In this document: one piece after another, positions 33,096 through 39,000 of the stretch
How the letters are laid out: each line of letters starts with the position of its first letter
Position numbering within the stretch: position 1 is the first letter of the stretch
Assembly (NCBI GenBank): GCA_016196115.1
Contig: JACPYI010000022.1
Span: 1-39,628, forward strand
Origin: Candidatus Sungiibacteriota bacterium
GTDB taxonomy: Bacteria > Patescibacteriota > Minisyncoccia > Sungbacterales > HO2-52-23
Direction of reading: 5' to 3'
DNA: 39,628 bases
The notes under the pieces: generated by a model
Databases searched by the model: none
What the model was told of the DNA's origin: nothing
Seen by the model: only the letters and a program-made list of their open reading frames with translations
Position numbers and translations under genes: made by a program

Positions 33096-35051
33096 ATGAA
33101 TCTTCGCGCTCATCTTAAAAAATCGTTAGTCGCGCCGTTCCTCATCGCTCTGATTTGCATAGGATTTGCTTTGCCTTTTTCCGCGCACGCCATCTTGGGT
33201 GTGGGAGATGTAGGTGTAACCGTCACTCTCCCTGGTTCAGTTACTAGCACCGAGACACTTACTAATCCTCAAACTTTTGGCTCAACCACGTGGCTACTTC
33301 GCTACATCGTCAACCCGCTCGCGCGGGCCGCAACGCGGGCTGTGCTTACCTCGCTTACCCAGCAGGTGGTGAATTGGGTTTCGGCAAACGGGGGAAATAA
33401 CGTCGGGTTTGTGGGCAATTTTGAGCAGACCCTTACCAATGAACTTGATAATGAGGCCGGGCAGATTTTGGACCAGTTCAAATACATTGATTTTTGCGGG
33501 GACATCGGGACGTATCTGCGGCTTAATTTGCGCGGGCCTGCGGGCGGGTTTCGCCAGAGGGCCCGATGCACCCTGACCGCGGCCGTAAAAAACGTGCAGA
33601 GTTTTTACGACAACTTCCAAAACGGCGGCTGGGAGACGTTTTTGAAAACCAACGTGGATATCCAGAACAACACGGCCGGCGCCTTTCTCATCGGGTTTGA
33701 CTACAAACTTGCGATGGAATCGCGGCGGAAAGAAGAGTTTGGGCTCAAGTACCAAAAGAGCAGCGTCCTTGGCATTACCATACCCAAAAAAATATCAAGC
33801 ACATGCATACCAACGGACTCCAGAAAAACTTTTGGAAATGACCCGAATCTTGGTAAAAGTTATTCCCGATCAGGCAGCAAGCTCTCCTCAGATGTTACCA
33901 CCAATCAGACCGAATTTGGAAGCGAGAGCTGTCTCAACACCTACGAGGAGCAGACCCCGGGCACGATTATCGAGCAGACCATCAAAGACGCGAATAAGAC
34001 CGGCATTGATTTTGGCATTAGCGCAAAGGATTTTGACGAGGCAATCGGCGCCATTATGACGGCGCTCTTGCAGCGTACCATCAGCTCGGCAGGAGGCATA
34101 TTTGGCAAGGGCTCGCCTGGGCAGGCAAATTATGGGGACCAGCTGTATAGCTACAAAGAGATCGGCCCGTCGCAGGATGCTCTGCGCTCCCGCACTGAGG
34201 CCGGTATTTTCCTTGCCTACGGAGCCACCCAGGCCATTGATGCGTCGGTGCTGGCGCTTCGCGCAGAGATTGCGGCAACCTCAACGCTCTCTGCCGCGCG
34301 CGAAAAAGAACTGAAAGAAAAAACATCTGACCTGCTTGCCAAAAAACAGGTGCTTGCCGCTGCCGAAAGCCGGATTGTTACCACCAAGCAATCATCATTC
34401 AATGCCGTTACCCAGGGTGATATTGCGGCCATTGACGGACGCATCACGCAAAGCATGAACGCTATTGAGCCCATTGCCGCCGAAGTAAAAGCATCGCCAT
34501 ACGCCTCGCCCACCGGAGACATGAAAACCGACGCGCTCAATGATCTCTCCGGCGCCCGCACCGCTGTGGCAAGCACACGACGCCTTGTCGGGCAGGCAAT
34601 TGACGAGATTGACGCGGCGCTTGGATTCTTTGCCGCGGCCAGCACGACTCGTCAAGCCGATATCGCGACCCTCCACAACTATCGCGATACGCTCTTCACG
34701 AGCATACGGGCAACGACGGCCGCCGAGTCCGGGGCGACGCAAAAACTTCTTGCGGAAGACGGCAAACTTCAAAACGAATACAATACGATCCAGAGATTTG
34801 TCACCTCAAGCGAGGCAATCGGGGAGACCGGCACCGCGATCAGTTTGATTTTGGCGGCAAACGAAGTGCGACAAAACGCCGCTACCGCGATCCAAAATAC
34901 CTTTAGTTTTCTCGACAGCATCGTGGGGCAAGCATTGGTAACCCCAGCTCCCCAGAGCCCGTCCACAGCGGCAACACCCGTAACCCCGGAAACGCCCGAA
35001 ACCCCGCCGATCCCGGCACCCATAGAATCAGGAGGCGAGCCCGGAGAATAG
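33096..35051 (+). CDS. large secreted/membrane hypothetical protein
   Basis: Signal peptide ending AHA; TQQVVNWV, NGGWETF, QTPG motifs; helical C-terminus. Confidence 0.75.
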   Translation: MNLRAHLKKSLVAPFLIALICIGFALPFSAHAILGVGDVGVTVTLPGSVTSTETLTNPQTFGSTTWLLRYIVNPLARAATRAVLTSLTQQVVNWVSANGGNNVGFVGNFEQTLTNELDNEAGQILDQFKYIDFCGDIGTYLRLNLRGPAGGFRQRARCTLTAAVKNVQSFYDNFQNGGWETFLKTNVDIQNNTAGAFLIGFDYKLAMESRRKEEFGLKYQKSSVLGITIPKKISSTCIPTDSRKTFGNDPNLGKSYSRSGSKLSSDVTTNQTEFGSESCLNTYEEQTPGTIIEQTIKDANKTGIDFGISAKDFDEAIGAIMTALLQRTISSAGGIFGKGSPGQANYGDQLYSYKEIGPSQDALRSRTEAGIFLAYGATQAIDASVLALRAEIAATSTLSAAREKELKEKTSDLLAKKQVLAAAESRIVTTKQSSFNAVTQGDIAAIDGRITQSMNAIEPIAAEVKASPYASPTGDMKTDALNDLSGARTAVASTRRLVGQAIDEIDAALGFFAAASTTRQADIATLHNYRDTLFTSIRATTAAESGATQKLLAEDGKLQNEYNTIQRFVTSSEAIGETGTAISLILAANEVRQNAATAIQNTFSFLDSIVGQALVTPAPQSPSTAATPVTPETPETPPIPAPIESGGEPGE

Positions 35052-35067
35052 GGTAATACCAAAGATC

Positions 35068-35335
35068 ATGAAAAGAGATTTTGATTGATGGAGCCCAAAA
35101 GCAAAACCGCCCCGTATACAGAGCGGCTTCGCGGTGCATAACCCACCCGACAGATTACCTCCGAACATCACCAGCGGGCTTGGTACGCGGGTATATTTTA
35201 TCCCGGCATGGTCGGGACTCGGCGTCGATCCTTTGAGCACAGTACCATACCACCCAAAGAATCCGAGCTCTGCCCCCGGTTCGGCCAGAAACAAGAGCTT
35301 GTACGAAAAAGCACCACCTACATATGTATCACAAA
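35068..35335 (+). pseudogene. decayed PemK-like cassette remnant
   Basis: MKRDFD*W resembles PemK start MEKAFDAW; TGCCCCCG..TTGTAC..ACCACC at 35271-35318 echoes 36653-36708. Confidence 0.4.
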
Positions 35336-35411
35336 CAAAAAAACCCTACTCTCCCTGCTCCTGATCGCGCTGGTGATCGCGGGGGTTTTCGGCGCGGGGC
35401 AGGAGGTGTTA
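35336..35411 (+). repeat. 76-bp signal-peptide repeat R1
   Basis: Encodes KKTLLSLLLIALVIAGVFGAGQEV; matches 36744-36819. Confidence 0.9.
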
Positions 35412-35428
35412 TCATATATGAGAAAAAC

Positions 35429-35989
35429 ATGACGCAAAAAACGCTCATTCTCAAAGGAGAGGCTGTCGTCTACATTGACTGGGCGAATGTTCACGGCTGG
35501 GAGGGATCACTCAAGTGCAAGATAGATATTGCTCACCTTTTTGCCTATTTGAAAACTTATCCGCAGACGCAGGATATACGGCTTTATTTTGGGAAAGATA
35601 TCCATCCGAAATCCGTAGCATTTCTCCAGCGCGCGCAAGAAATCGGATACACAGTCACCAGTAAAGACGTAAAATATATTCTTGAAGCGGAGATTAGCGG
35701 CCGGAAAGTATATCGCCGCAAATGCGACTTTGATATGGAAATCTGTATTGACGTACACGAGGCGCTGGCTGAAAACATCCGTGCCTTCGTTTTCTTTACC
35801 GGAGATGGCGATTTTGCTCCGTTGTATAAGAAGCTGATCCACTTACATAAACAGGTGATTGTAATCTATTCACCGGGTCATCTTGGCAGGGAGATTTGGG
35901 ATATAAAGAAGGGCGTGTTTAAGATTCAACTCAAGAATCTATTCGATAGAGAAAAATCGTCCCCCCGATTGCTCGAGGGGCGTGATTAG
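35429..35989 (+). CDS. NYN/LabA(DUF88) PIN-fold ribonuclease
   Basis: VYIDWANV, RLYFG, KCDFDMEICID, FTGDGDFAPL; start MTQKTL. Confidence 0.9.
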   Translation: MTQKTLILKGEAVVYIDWANVHGWEGSLKCKIDIAHLFAYLKTYPQTQDIRLYFGKDIHPKSVAFLQRAQEIGYTVTSKDVKYILEAEISGRKVYRRKCDFDMEICIDVHEALAENIRAFVFFTGDGDFAPLYKKLIHLHKQVIVIYSPGHLGREIWDIKKGVFKIQLKNLFDREKSSPRLLEGRD

Positions 35990-35990
35990 T
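35948..35990 (-). ncRNA. candidate antisense hairpin sRNA at NYN 3' end
   Basis: Minus strand AATCACGCCCCTCGA-GCAA-TCGGGGGGACGATTTTT, immediately downstream of the promoter at 35995-36022. Confidence 0.55.
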
Positions 35991-35994
35991 CACC

Positions 35995-36022
35995 AGTGTA
36001 GCAAATTGAAAAAGTATGTCAA
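35995..36022 (-). promoter_or_regulatory. convergent sigma70 promoter facing NYN
   Basis: TTGACA-N16-TACACT with TG extension; no credible minus-strand CDS follows. Confidence 0.7.
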
Positions 36023-36107
36023 GACCTCTGATCAGACATTTATCCCTCACTATTCTTAAACGTACCACCATACAAATGGGTGTGGAACCCAAAAGAATAG
36101 TGTGGGA

Positions 36108-36213
36108 CAAAAAAATCATCCTCTCCCTGCTCCTAATCGCCCGCCTGCGCCAAGGCTTCGGTGGACAAGCACTGGTCATTGCCGGAGTTTTTGGCACGGG
36201 GCATGGGGTGTTT
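36108..36213 (+). repeat. signal-peptide repeat R2 with 30-bp insert
   Basis: KKIILSLLLIA[RLRQGFGGQA]LVIAGVFGTGHGVF. Confidence 0.9.
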
Positions 36214-36247
36214 TGGGCGGAGCGGCGAGTTAGTGTAACATAAGATT

Positions 36248-36640
36248 ATGGAAAAAGCTTTTGACGCGTGGAATACGGAAAAGAAGATGATTCATCAACA
36301 AGAGTTGCCGCCATTTTGCTATCCACGCGAAGTATGGTGGTGTGCGCTTGGAGTAAATGTCGGCGATGAGCAGGATGGAACCGGCAAAAACTTTGACAGA
36401 CCCATTGTTGTCGTGCGCGGATTTAATGAACGTATCTTTTTGGGCATCGCGCTTACCGGCAAAAAGAAAGTGGGGGATTATTACTTTTATCTGGGGAAAA
36501 TCGCTGACAGAGACGCATCTGCTGTCCTCTCTCAAATGCGGCTCATTGACTCGAAACGGCTGGTCAAGAAGATAGCCGTGCTCGATAAAATCACGTTTGA
36601 AAACTTACAAGAAGCTCTTAAAAAAATGCTCTTTGGATAA
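36248..36640 (+). CDS. PemK/MazF-family endoribonuclease toxin
   Basis: EVWWCALGVNVGDEQDG..RPIVVV..IALT..SAVLSQMRLIDSKRLVKKI. Confidence 0.9.
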   Translation: MEKAFDAWNTEKKMIHQQELPPFCYPREVWWCALGVNVGDEQDGTGKNFDRPIVVVRGFNERIFLGIALTGKKKVGDYYFYLGKIADRDASAVLSQMRLIDSKRLVKKIAVLDKITFENLQEALKKMLFG

Positions 36641-36692
36641 TGTAAACTAATTTGCCCCCGCTTGCGCGGGGGCGAGGCCGAAGCCCTTTGTA
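36641..36692 (-). ncRNA. candidate two-hairpin sRNA convergent on pemK
   Basis: Minus strand GGC-TTCG-GCC then GCCCCCGC-GCAA-GCGGGGGC, directly after the promoter at 36698-36727. Confidence 0.6.
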
Positions 36693-36697
36693 CTCCC

Positions 36698-36727
36698 ATC
36701 ATACCACCCTCCCAAAACACATGTCAA
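36698..36727 (-). promoter_or_regulatory. convergent sigma70 promoter facing pemK
   Basis: TTGACA-N18-TATGAT with TG extension; the -35 overlaps ATG36721 of the next gene. Confidence 0.7.
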
Positions 36728-39000
36728 CCCCCCAGACCAAACACAAAAAAATCATCCTCTCCCTGCTCCTGATCGCGCTGGTCATCGCCGGGGTTTTGGG
36801 GCTGGGGCATGGAGTGTTTGCCGCACCAGATCCGCCAGCAGTACAACCGCCCACGACGGGACTTTCAATTCCACCAAACTCATCTTCGTCGATTCTTGGT
36901 GCAATTCTCTGGATTCTTTTGGCCATTCGAACCGTCCTCGCATGGCTCCTATCGTATGCTGGTACTGCTTTAGACGCAATGTTTGTAGCAAATGCCGAGC
37001 TTGTACCTTCTGGCAATTCAACTGTACAAACTGGATGGATTATATTGCGTGACCTCGTAAATGGAATGTTTATTTTAATCGTCCTCTGGATTGCACTTAC
37101 TATTATCCTCGGTATTGAACAATATGGCGGAAAAAAATTACTCGTAAAGGTGTTAGCAGTCGCAATTCTTATTAACTTCAGTTTAGCAATTGTTACTGCA
37201 ATCTTTGCGTTTTCCAATCAGGTTGCGCTCGTTTTTGCAAATAAAATCAGTGGCGGACCGGAAAAAAACGTCGCTGCACTCATTATCAATACAACAAAAG
37301 TATACAGTATTACCAATCAACTCGACGCAGAGGCGCGTGCTAAACTTGAACAAGCAAGAAAGGCATATATATGGTCTGGAAGTAGTTGTGCTTGGGGGGA
37401 TATATGGTGTGCTACCAAGAATATCGGTTCAGCCGCCGTCACCGCTGCAGGATCTGCTTTCAGCACGGTGGTAGGAGCCGAGAAGGCGAATTTTGATCAG
37501 GTAGTTGGTGCCGCCATTGGTATTATCTTTCTCTTGATTATAACATCGGCATTTGTCTATACAGCCGTTGCTCTTGGTATACGCTATGTTGCGGTAATAC
37601 TTGTCTCAATCTTTGCTCCTATCGCTTGTCTTGCACTTGTTTTACCACTTGCATCCGCAAAAAAAGCGTGGGATCAGTGGTCAGAAGCGGTTTTCAAATG
37701 GGCGTTCTTTGCCCCGGCGTTTTATTTCTTACTGTATCTGACGCTTCTTATGGCGGTAGCATTTGATAAGCAACTCAGTCAGGGATCACAGGGAACAACA
37801 GATATTAAAATAGATACGCCACGCATTTTGGCTCTTATGGTAGTTTTGATTATGCTCCATTTCACGGCAAAGTTTGCAAAAGACACATCTGGAAAAGCGG
37901 GTACAATTGTTATGGATACCCTCAAAAAAGGTGCGGGGTTGGCGGTGGGGGTTACGGCTGGGGTGGCGACCGGCGGGACGCTGATGGCGGCGCGTGGGTT
38001 GGCGCGTGGGATGGTGAAGCCGGGGACAAGGCGTGAAAAGTTTACGCGAGGACTGGCCCGATACGCGCCAGGCGGAAGAGCTATTCAACGGGCAGGTGTT
38101 CGATCATTGGAGCAGCAGAAGCAGGATATTGAGGATCGGAAGAAAAACTATGGAAGCTACTCCAACGATCAGATACAAGCTGATTTCCGCGGAACCAATA
38201 TTGATTACACCAGAGAAAATGCTGCCAGATTGGCCATGCTTGCCGAACGCAAGGATGGGTTTAAGGGCATGAACGAGGGCGAGATGAAGCGCGTACAGGC
38301 AGTTCTTTCGCATTACAATATGGGCAGTACGCTTGCCAAGACAAACCCAACCCTTGCAGATGAGAACTCGCTCTCTACCAAGGGACGGCAAGACCTAAAG
38401 GATAACGCCGGAAAGAATGCGATAAATCATAATAATGCCCTGGCGGCAGATCCAATCCGCTACACCGCAGAGAATATGCTATCCGGCGACATAGAAAAGG
38501 TAAACACCAGTGAGATCAAGGAAATGACGACGGACAGTGATAAGGCGAAAGAGGCAAAAGCAAAAGTGCGCGAGGGCTTTGCGCGCAATACCGCGTTTGG
38601 CACGAATCAACTCCGCGATCTTGCAGTCAAAGATATTGAGGCAGCCCAGCAACAGGTTAATCACATGAATAGCACCTATGTAGCACTCAATGCGGAGTTG
38701 GCTACCGAGATGGCAAAAGTCGAGGACCAGAGAGATCAGGCAATGATTGCGCGCACCAATCGCCGCATTGCACAGATAAAGGGAATCGCGGCATATGTCA
38801 ATAATAATCCGGGCGGCAGAATATTAGGACTTACATTAGAAACAGAAATGGCAGATGCCGCGGAACAAGAGCGCCAGCGAGGGCGCAGAGGAGGAAGAGC
38901 GGGTAATCCACAACCTCCAACACCAACTCCACCAACTACTCCCACGCCTACACCCCCCCCCGACAACGCCGTAAACCCTGCGGCGCAATGGACTCGTTAA
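36721..39000 (+). CDS. TrbL/VirB6-like polytopic membrane protein
   Basis: Signal peptide; GWIILRDLVN, AILINFSL, IRYVAVILVSIFAPIA, W..FKWAFFAP; Gly/Ala-rich segment; charged tail. Confidence 0.7.
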   Translation: MSTPQTKHKKIILSLLLIALVIAGVLGLGHGVFAAPDPPAVQPPTTGLSIPPNSSSSILGAILWILLAIRTVLAWLLSYAGTALDAMFVANAELVPSGNSTVQTGWIILRDLVNGMFILIVLWIALTIILGIEQYGGKKLLVKVLAVAILINFSLAIVTAIFAFSNQVALVFANKISGGPEKNVAALIINTTKVYSITNQLDAEARAKLEQARKAYIWSGSSCAWGDIWCATKNIGSAAVTAAGSAFSTVVGAEKANFDQVVGAAIGIIFLLIITSAFVYTAVALGIRYVAVILVSIFAPIACLALVLPLASAKKAWDQWSEAVFKWAFFAPAFYFLLYLTLLMAVAFDKQLSQGSQGTTDIKIDTPRILALMVVLIMLHFTAKFAKDTSGKAGTIVMDTLKKGAGLAVGVTAGVATGGTLMAARGLARGMVKPGTRREKFTRGLARYAPGGRAIQRAGVRSLEQQKQDIEDRKKNYGSYSNDQIQADFRGTNIDYTRENAARLAMLAERKDGFKGMNEGEMKRVQAVLSHYNMGSTLAKTNPTLADENSLSTKGRQDLKDNAGKNAINHNNALAADPIRYTAENMLSGDIEKVNTSEIKEMTTDSDKAKEAKAKVREGFARNTAFGTNQLRDLAVKDIEAAQQQVNHMNSTYVALNAELATEMAKVEDQRDQAMIARTNRRIAQIKGIAAYVNNNPGGRILGLTLETEMADAAEQERQRGRRGGRAGNPQPPTPTPPTTPTPTPPPDNAVNPAAQWTR
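36744..36819 (+). repeat. signal-peptide repeat R3 (inside the live gene)
   Basis: KKIILSLLLIALVIAGVLGLGHGVF. Confidence 0.9.

Follow-up and report, generated by a model that had tools for sequence, protein, structure and literature searches.

The window analysed here, a stretch of 39,628 nucleotides (nt) of contig JACPYI010000022.1 from a Candidatus Sungiibacteriota bacterium (assembly GCA_016196115.1), harbors two RNase genes of unrelated fold, one for a NYN-domain protein and one for a protein of the PemK/MazF family. Each of them is met at its 3' end by a short unit on the minus strand, which consists of a promoter and a predicted small RNA (Table 1). The comparison with related genomes supports the view that this RNA is structured, is under selection and has a genetic link to two RNase folds which are unrelated to each other and come without a protein antitoxin.

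Table 1. Genes, RNA units and gene-start copies at the locus; positions refer to the window.
Feature	Position	Strand	Basis
NYN-domain (PIN-like) nuclease gene, 186 residues	35429..35989	+	Pfam PF01936, conserved acidic residues
PemK/MazF-family endoribonuclease gene, 130 residues, conserved 26-residue N-terminal extension	36248..36640	+	Pfam PF02452, predicted fold
NYN-type RNA promoter: -35 TTGACA 36022-36017, 16-nt spacer, TG-extended -10 TACACT 36000-35995	35995..36022	-	promoter scan, 10/12 matches
Predicted NYN-type small RNA, ~37 nt	35952..35988	-	promoter/terminator scan, folding, model R2, covariation
PemK-type RNA promoter: -35 TTGACA 36727-36722, 18-nt spacer, TG-extended -10 TATGAT 36703-36698	36698..36727	-	promoter scan, 11/12 matches
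Predicted PemK-type small RNA, ~47 nt	36645..36691	-	promoter/terminator scan, folding, model R1, covariation
Polytopic membrane-protein gene, conserved; target of cassette insertions	36721..39000	+	homologues in related genomes
Copy 1 of membrane-gene 5' end (signal-peptide-like segment), inside small open reading frame 35208-35432	35335..35411	+	repeat search
Copy 2 of membrane-gene 5' end, inside small open reading frame 36016-36243	36107..36213	+	repeat search

In a preliminary description of this DNA, two minus-strand promoters had been named at 36022-35995 and 36727-36698. The promoter scan returned exactly these sites, and they are the only minus-strand promoters that it found between 34800 and 37200. 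The number of promoter-like sites in this 2.4-kb region is not above chance (three vs. 2.9 expected from shuffles), so that it is conservation which carries the argument. Leaderless ATG start codons of this genome have their A 7 nt after the -10 box, which places the starts of the two RNAs at about 35988 and 36691 and sets their lengths at about 37 and 47 nt. Behind many consensus promoters of the genome (TTGACA, 16 or 17 nt, TATACT), an ATG lies exactly 6-7 nt past the -10 box, so that leaderless messages seem to be common in this organism.

The predicted NYN-type RNA, like that of the PemK unit, starts with a short single-stranded leader, here AAUCACG (35987-35981), which is followed by a hairpin (35980-35961; eight pairs, loop GCAA, one U-G) and a U-run (35956-35952). 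It is antisense over its whole length to the NYN gene, opposite the last 12 codons together with the stop codon. The predicted PemK-type RNA displays the leader ACAAA (36691-36687), a UUCG hairpin (36685-36676), a second hairpin with a GCAA loop of the GNRA type (36673-36654; eight G-C pairs) and a U-rich tail (36653-36645), and it ends 5 nt beyond the PemK stop codon. The -35 box of its promoter overlaps the ATG of the next gene (36721). Both hairpin regions had been described as lying downstream of their genes; this holds for PemK, whereas the NYN hairpin and its tail are located within the last 12 codons. Terminator-like sites on the minus strand are the hairpin 36673-36654 followed by AAATTAGTTT and the hairpin 35980-35961 followed by ACGATTTTTC. 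Since the U-rich tails behind both hairpins were scored as terminator-like, each unit can be regarded as a complete small gene. The minus strand of the NYN unit folds with -20.4 kcal/mol (z -3.3) in comparison to -14.6 kcal/mol (z -1.25) for the plus strand, and the PemK unit with -25.9 kcal/mol (z -4.0) in comparison to -24.5 kcal/mol. On the minus strand the loops read GCAA in the NYN unit and UUCG and GCAA in the PemK unit, and UUCG and GNRA loops are formed on this strand only. The proposal that the tetraloop hairpins are specific to the minus strand was thereby confirmed for all three stems, with the more stable folds on that strand.

The NYN protein was assigned by Pfam PF01936 (E 1.5e-14; 55.2 bits vs. 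a cut-off of 24.2), and at least 97% of 69 homologues retain the acidic residues D17, D57, D100, D102, E104, D126, D128 and E155. The active site of NYN proteins has been described to consist of four acidic residues (PMC5499597). The PemK protein matches PF02452 over residues 27-128 (E 3.9e-10; 40.4 bits vs. a cut-off of 23.1). Its AlphaFold model (predicted local distance difference test score, pLDDT, 78.3) has MazF-mt1 and the MazF proteins of S. aureus and B. subtilis as best Foldseek matches, with a probability of 1.0 and template modeling (TM) scores of 0.56-0.72. R51-P52 is invariant among the homologues, and other residues are kept as well. At the N-terminus an extra conserved helix is present (residues 3-17, W8 invariant), which is joined by a linker of low confidence in the model. 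Scans with NCBIfam and PADLOC yielded, beyond Pfam, just a weak NYN match. With regard to a phage origin, no relatives of either protein were found in viral contigs when each protein was used singly as query.

A MazE/PemI-type antitoxin gene was not found directly upstream of PemK, where the open reading frame (ORF) is a truncated copy of a gene start. The small ORFs upstream of NYN and PemK match no Pfam family at E <= 1 and are truncated copies of the start of the membrane-protein gene; as antitoxins they were rejected. Among the homologous loci of PemK or NYN no conserved upstream ORF was found. The upstream regions of 14 PemK homologues are mutually unrelated, and tandem PemK genes are separated by the RNA unit only. 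An antitoxin encoded on the antisense strand inside PemK was likewise rejected, as each of the 29 genes examined has stop codons in every antisense frame and only four of the 29 show long open antisense stretches (over 110 codons). The lack of an adjacent protein antitoxin, as initially described for the two genes, hence extends to the homologues, which have no conserved protein partner upstream or antisense. Furthermore, no conserved promoter of their own was found for the RNase genes.

A protein search of 61 related genomes revealed relatives of PemK in 17 of them, and frequently several in one genome. Eighteen of these loci were examined, of which two were masked or cut by a contig end; in all 16 evaluable loci a minus-strand unit lies directly past the PemK stop codon. 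A scan of species genomes provided 15 more distant PemK loci (32-67% protein identity) from Saccharibacteria, Parcubacteria, Nomurabacteria, Paceibacterota, Azambacteria and a few other lineages of the candidate phyla radiation (CPR). Here, the unit is present in 14 of 14 evaluable loci, at locus L108 by covariance model only. In total, the unit follows 30 of 30 evaluable PemK homologues, and the three PemK paralogues of this genome all carry one. The PemK units share a layout of TTGACA, a spacer of 16-18 nt, a TG-extended TATACT-like -10 box, about 6 nt and a leader starting with A, followed by a short hairpin (GGCUUCGGCC, GCCUUCGGGC or other), a linker, a GC-rich hairpin and a U-rich tail; the leader ACAAAU and the UUCG hairpin go with PemK. 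Covariance model R1 matches the window at 36636-36727 (85.6 bits). Among the 62 genomes of the order, 11 contain R1 matches, 16 in total, and most of these adjoin intact PemK genes.

For NYN, 23 loci of the related genomes were inspected by eye, and about 16 of them show a convergent promoter and hairpin; the seven without are the weakest protein matches. Separate NYN subfamilies bear separate RNA sequences. A metagenome scan with the NYN subfamily of the window yielded 80 loci of 45-74% identity, 20 of which were dropped as duplicates or because they were cut by a contig end. The remaining 60, three loci of related genomes and the window make up 64 sources. Model R2, built from 18 sequences, matches all 64 (65 matches), with 80 bits and E 2.9e-12 at 35941-36026 in the window, and in the 62 genomes of the order it has five matches, every one adjoining a NYN gene. 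The preliminary expectation that the downstream units are kept among homologues has therefore been borne out for both RNases, in 64 of 64 evaluable close homologues of NYN as well as in the 30 PemK loci. The 61 distinct NYN units read TTGACA, 16-18 nt, TATAAT or TATACT, 6-7 nt, AAUCACGCC, a hairpin and then (G)ACAUUUUU; GNRA loops are present in 44 of 65 units. In the 65-row alignment of these units, column conservation amounts to 77-100% for the -35 box, 31-71% for the spacer, 88% for the TG, 65-98% for the -10 box, 42-62% for the start region, 94-100% for the leader and 89-97% for the U-run. The nucleotides are kept though they are read as ...SPRLLEGRD in the window, as ...VPPIARGA in another frame at other loci, or lie past an earlier stop codon at still others. 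This independence of the reading frame indicates that selection acts on the nucleotide or RNA level and not on the protein tail.

A 9-mer, which we take to be the DnaA-box consensus, is present upstream of the -35 box in 13 of the 61 NYN units. In the whole genome it occurs 41 times, in comparison to about six expected from length alone, mostly in intergenic positions, often about 9 nt upstream of a -35 box, and both orientations are represented. The 9-mer resembles an operator associated with promoters.

The covariation test that had been suggested at the outset was performed on two alignments, A9 (NYN units, 65 sequences) and A7 (PemK units, 38 sequences). MAFFT alignments (A2-A5) misplaced the variable stems, and RNAalifold gave a wrong consensus on A3; therefore, model-based alignments were used. 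Since A7 and A9 were fitted to the covariance models, they favour the structure under test, which has to be held against the following values, although the stems are still plain in the raw sequences. Standard pairing was observed in 100% of 478 cells of A9 in comparison to 89.5% in shuffles, and in 96.3% of the cells of A7 in comparison to 70.6%. Compensatory changes on both sides are present in both units, in six of eight pairs of A9 (40 cells vs. 4.6 in shuffles) and in all 11 pairs of A7 (74 cells vs. 16.1). If the partners are slid by one to three columns, pairing drops to at most 78% in A9 and at most 52% in A7. The wobble pairs reveal the strand: A9 contains 29 U-G pairs and no unpaired position, and these 29 are C-A mismatches on the sense strand, so that the strand preference first noticed from one U-G pair in the NYN stem of the window recurs in the alignment (29 U-G, 0 A-C). 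In A7, 15 G-U or U-G pairs stand against four A-C or C-A mismatches; counted by sequence, 12 favour the antisense strand and two the sense strand, with locus L098 as one counter-example. These data indicate that the hairpins are genuine and that the antisense strand is the one that forms them.

On the sense strand no intrinsic terminator was found, as the plus strand lacks a U-run past the stem and folds more weakly. Hairpins acting as plus-strand terminators, a rival named beforehand, were accordingly rejected, based on the missing plus-strand U-run, the C-A mismatches on that strand and the position of the cassettes inside an operon. The Rfam scan that had also been proposed, including the pemK motif, gave no match at E <= 10 between 34000 and 38000, and 16 loci of this genome were likewise without a match at gathering score. 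The two units represent, as a well-supported reading of the sequence comparisons, two new families of RNAs that accompany orphan RNases across the CPR.

The surroundings of the two genes show how they may have arrived. The start of the membrane-protein gene is present in three copies, its first ~80-100 nt occurring at 35335-35411, 36107-36213 and 36743-36819, with the latter as the source. Copy 1 is 78-88% identical to this source, and copy 2 carries a 30-nt insertion at 36141-36170, which is also present in the cassette of one genome of the same genus. The two small ORFs are truncated 5' copies of the gene at 36721-39000; the TGA of the first one overlaps the NYN ATG (ATGA at 35429-35432), and the second one stops 4 nt ahead of the PemK ATG. 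The order within the array is therefore gene-start fragment, toxin gene and RNA unit. Homologues of the membrane gene were found in 43 of the 61 related genomes, and in most of these genomes it directly follows the upstream gene with a gap of ~10-15 nt and without a cassette. This comparison indicates that the NYN and PemK genes are cassettes put into an operon, each after a duplicated piece of the membrane-gene 5' end. A sense-strand terminator would be harmful there, since the cassettes are inserted within the operon. The preliminary description had recognised the pairing of RNase and RNA, which is borne out, and had overlooked the cassette structure with the triplicated gene start.

Cassettes at the membrane-gene site are present in the four genomes of the window's genus and in two other genomes. 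Three PemK cassettes, of which one is truncated, are present in one genome of the same genus, and each has its own gene-start copy and RNA unit. In another one, a truncated PemK with an intact unit occupies the same site, along with a fragment of the gene start and an unrelated gene of 136 residues. The cassette sets thus vary within the genus (three PemK; one PemK; truncated PemK and the 136-residue gene; loci L010, L013, L123), which fits a gain and loss via recombination between the repeated gene-start fragments.

At the downstream border, the reverse complement of the -35 box (ATGTCAA, 36721-36727) provides the start codon of the next gene, which is also the case at loci L008, L012 and L116. 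Because of this, unrelated downstream proteins share the N-terminus M-S-(S/T/N)-P, namely the membrane protein of the window and a zinc-ribbon protein in three other genomes; the latter bears a PD-(D/E)xK-like motif recognised by eye. Furthermore, an inverted repeat of 30 nt (36039-36068 and 36082-36111, 77% complementary, 13 nt apart) lies between the promoter of the NYN unit and copy 2.

The 3' ends of the RNA gene and of the RNase reading frame always adjoin or overlap each other. It is proposed, with about an even chance of being correct, that the RNase gene and the convergent, independently transcribed small-RNA gene form a two-part cassette, in which the RNA is the negative regulator of the RNase, i.e., its antitoxin, a role that we infer from the sequence data. 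Here, the RNase gene would be transcribed by read-through from the upstream genes, and this message would run through the RNA unit, which it must cross because a sense-strand terminator is missing. The presumably abundant RNA of 37-47 nt would then pair with the 3' end of the RNase message, and RNase III, whose gene is present in the genome, would cut the resulting duplex. The message would thereby lose its 3' end, in the case of NYN the last codons and the stop codon, and would subsequently be degraded. Overall, this would represent a type I-like control via a 3' overlap. Such a position-dependent mechanism is favoured because the convergent adjoining position is common to at least six unrelated RNA classes and two or three folds. 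Pairing in trans with the start region of the toxin's own message was rejected as a general mechanism: 21 mixed PemK and NYN pairs gave -13.4 kcal/mol in comparison to -12.5 kcal/mol for non-cognate pairs, and 57 NYN loci gave -7.5 kcal/mol in comparison to -7.9 kcal/mol for shuffled leaders. A search for other genomic targets of the NYN leader found its complementary 9-mer 19 times, where 6.4 occurrences are expected from length alone; no informative pattern emerged.

The antitoxin role is in line with the relics. No intact PemK gene was found without a unit, while units adjoin truncated PemK genes at loci L119, L123 and L116. For NYN, a remnant of 73 residues on contig C10 (C10:8218-8262; L094 762-983), in which the N-terminal 45 residues are joined to the C-terminal tail, still has an intact convergent promoter, hairpin and U-run. 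At C22:85110-85166, an NYN-type RNA unit without NYN gene lies 75 nt from the end of a gene that was recognised by eye as coding for an Obg-like GTPase, and it is one base apart from the unit behind the NYN gene in a genome of another family (L037). A unit without toxin, yet never an intact toxin without unit, is the asymmetry that would be expected of a toxin-antidote pair.

Several observations weigh against this proposal. A near-invariant leader is not needed for a pure cis-antisense mechanism. In the PemK subfamily nearest to the window, the U-run is 5-7 nt away from the stem or missing (L100, L104); termination in window-like PemK units may thus be weak, and some RNAs may run on as longer antisense transcripts. 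Units of the PemK type are also found in other company. At L111, one adjoins a GIY-YIG gene of 100 residues without any PemK remnant; at L124 (G040:C2), a unit with promoter, UUCG hairpin and second hairpin lacks the U-run and leads on the same strand directly into hicB-hicA, so that it acts as promoter and 5' leader; and at L125, a convergent unit lies ~140 nt past a hicB-hicA pair, which is already provided with a protein antitoxin of its own. The original idea of RNA antitoxins for two RNase folds stands in so far as a conserved, structured antisense RNA is coupled to both, and is weakened by this occurrence of the PemK-type unit with GIY-YIG and hicBA. In this genome, similar mini-units also adjoin a gene for a TehB-like methyltransferase and a gene of 137 residues (family unassigned). 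With respect to the proteins, bacterial PF01936 (NYN) proteins are described as having no studied function (PMC5499597), and solitary MazF proteins under the control of unlinked proteins exist (PMC4803016).

The leader points to a second mechanism, in which the small RNA would bind the RNase directly as a pseudo-substrate or inhibitor, similar to a type III decoy, and pairing with the message would be irrelevant. Each toxin subfamily has its own near-invariant leader; AAUCACGCC is conserved to 94-100% over 65 units at 45-100% protein identity, and ACAAAU together with the UUCG hairpin accompanies PemK, an invariance that pairing in cis would not require. In the genomes of the order the R2-type RNA occurs only beside its NYN subfamily, and a strong constitutive promoter would suit a stoichiometric inhibitor. 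Yet a protein-binding RNA needs no strictly convergent, adjoining position, neither tandem repeats nor a same-strand co-transcription as in ToxIN are present, and PemK-type units are also combined with GIY-YIG and hicBA genes. Due to the near-invariant, subfamily-specific leaders, direct RNase binding appears nearly as likely as pairing; in its full form, with pairing playing no part, the decoy is a serious if rather unlikely candidate.

The unusual partners of the PemK-type unit would also fit an element that mainly serves as a cassette end or in mobility, e.g., as a recombination site or a portable promoter-leader block, with the link to the RNases reflecting shared mobility. The homology between loci ends at the -35 box and the contexts upstream of it are unrelated; in four genomes of the same genus, direct repeats of the 5' end of the target gene flank the cassette arrays; one unit type is found with PemK, GIY-YIG and hicBA; and two unrelated genes downstream of the unit take their ATG from the reverse-complemented -35 box. 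No recombinase is linked, however, and the promoter geometry, the fixed distance to the start, the U-run and the wobble bias toward the RNA strand indicate a transcribed RNA. A role in mobility would moreover be compatible with an antitoxin role; as the main function of the unit it is considered improbable.

Promoter and terminator occur together elsewhere in this genome, where a terminator lies within 95 nt of 22 of 108 strong promoters. Such mini-units at convergent gene ends comprise those of three PemK genes, two NYN genes and the truncated NYN as well as the NYN-less unit. This leads to the question of whether the RNA product is functionless and the convergent promoter and terminator just block or truncate read-through at the cassette end, as transcriptional interference or as an insulator. 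The location of the cassettes within an operon and without sense terminators would be in line with this, as would the facts that promoter and terminator are the best-conserved parts and that similar mini-units adjoin other genes. It leaves unexplained, on the other hand, the invariant leader, the covarying UUCG hairpin and the subfamily-specific RNA sequences, and interference would lower the expression of the downstream operon gene, too. Such a functionless product is thus held to be quite improbable.

Further mini-units of 46-92 nt without Rfam match are located at C15:7710-7778, C39:22982-23073, C36:571-504, C22:22216-22283, C24:5343-5412 and C11:3450-3499 and are candidate small RNAs; each combines a strong promoter with a terminator, and some run convergent to the TehB-like methyltransferase gene or the gene of 137 residues. 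The GIY-YIG gene of this genome, located on contig C23, has no such RNA unit. It encodes 101 residues (L211 1440-2040) and lies among several tRNA-like repeats with an inserted hairpin segment; it may represent a homing endonuclease or an intron-like element inserted into an array of tRNA genes.

Finally, the RNases might be non-toxic or controlled otherwise, e.g., by the conserved N-terminal extension of PemK or by an unlinked protein. In that case, the role of the RNA would be that of a substrate, of a processing product or of an unrelated regulator acting in trans. The lack of a studied function for bacterial NYN proteins in the source cited above, the known solitary MazF proteins with unlinked partners and the conserved extra N-terminal helix of PemK on its low-confidence linker would allow this. 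The physical linkage is, on the contrary, perfect in 94 loci, relic units persist beside decayed toxin genes while the reverse was never seen, and no pairing of the leader with the toxin start region was found and no other target identified. This reading is held to be very improbable.

The antitoxin model has to be seen in relation to known systems. In the type I systems txpA/RatA and bsrG/SR4 of Bacillus, a convergent antisense RNA overlaps the 3' end of the toxin message. The units described here are similar in having a convergent small-RNA gene with its own strong promoter, which overlaps or adjoins the 3' end of the message, and in the availability of RNase III. In contrast to these systems, the proteins are soluble nucleases of 130-186 residues and not small membrane peptides, the RNAs are far shorter (~37-47 nt) and have a near-invariant leader, and the toxin genes are part of cassettes, apparently without a promoter of their own. 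As far as the gene layout is concerned, the NYN-type RNA is predicted to lie within the last 12 codons and the PemK-type RNA to end 5 nt past the stop codon, which would fit type I systems; the cassettes are nevertheless not counted as members, because the toxins (a NYN protein of 186 residues and a MazF fold of 130) are not small peptides. Nuclease-type toxins with a cis-encoded antisense RNA are known, as for RalR-RalA. In the case of SymE-SymR, SymR overlaps the 5' end and the start region of symE, whereas the overlap here is at the 3' end; the folds differ as well, being AbrB-like for SymE and MazF and NYN here. The control of a nuclease-type toxin by a cis-encoded antisense RNA has been described for SymE-SymR (PMC1891008), which the present units resemble in the pairing of a nuclease with an antisense RNA.

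The type III systems ToxIN, CptIN and TenpIN contain an endoribonuclease toxin without protein antitoxin beside a small structured RNA (PMC3401426; PMC8860590). Their antitoxin is an upstream tandem-repeat array on the same strand, which is processed by the toxin, in contrast to the single convergent downstream RNA gene found here. No tandem repeats were detected beside either RNase gene, the only array (34969-35006) being inside the upstream coding region, and the PemK model matches MazF structures best and not ToxN. Since tandem repeats and a same-strand arrangement are missing, the cassettes are not assigned to type III. For MazF-family loci, the antisense RNA aMEF has been described, which acts on a normal type II mazEF pair and stimulates its synthesis (PMC8749433). 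The antisense RNA at a MazF-family locus is common to both cases, while a MazE is not present here. A further structured RNA linked to pemK genes is the pemK RNA motif of Rfam, which is located upstream on the same strand. The PemK unit differs from it in orientation and position and has no Rfam match. The motif is not mentioned in the main text of PMC5737381. In the literature on CPR small RNAs, on orphan MazF proteins with RNA antitoxins and on NYN toxin-antitoxin systems (abstracts and text passages), no description of these units was found.

As a wider, tentative scheme, which we regard as possible rather than probable, the units could belong to minimal selfish cassettes distributed throughout CPR bacteria. 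Each would combine a promoter-less RNase (MazF-fold, several NYN subfamilies, possibly GIY-YIG) with a convergent, self-terminated RNA of 35-50 nt, which has a leader specific to the subfamily, as its sole antidote, acting either as single-copy, protein-binding decoy or as 3' antisense RNA. Recombination into the 5' ends of host genes would be their way of spreading, with the -35 box donating a new start codon to these genes.

If this scheme holds true, the cassettes would represent a new toxin-antitoxin architecture and provide the first toxin role as well as the first RNA partner for bacterial NYN proteins. Orphan MazF/PemK genes usually stay unexplained; here a conserved partner is visible in the sequence, and this partner is an RNA. 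For NYN proteins, the linked RNA of 37 nt offers a direct hypothesis, either of a toxin with an RNA antidote or of an RNase with a dedicated RNA ligand. The RNA families are small, with clear covariation and precise predicted ends, and they occur across CPR lineages with almost no known small RNAs, which makes both of them good first targets for CPR RNA biology, and the cassette arrays show the spread of such genes inside reduced genomes.

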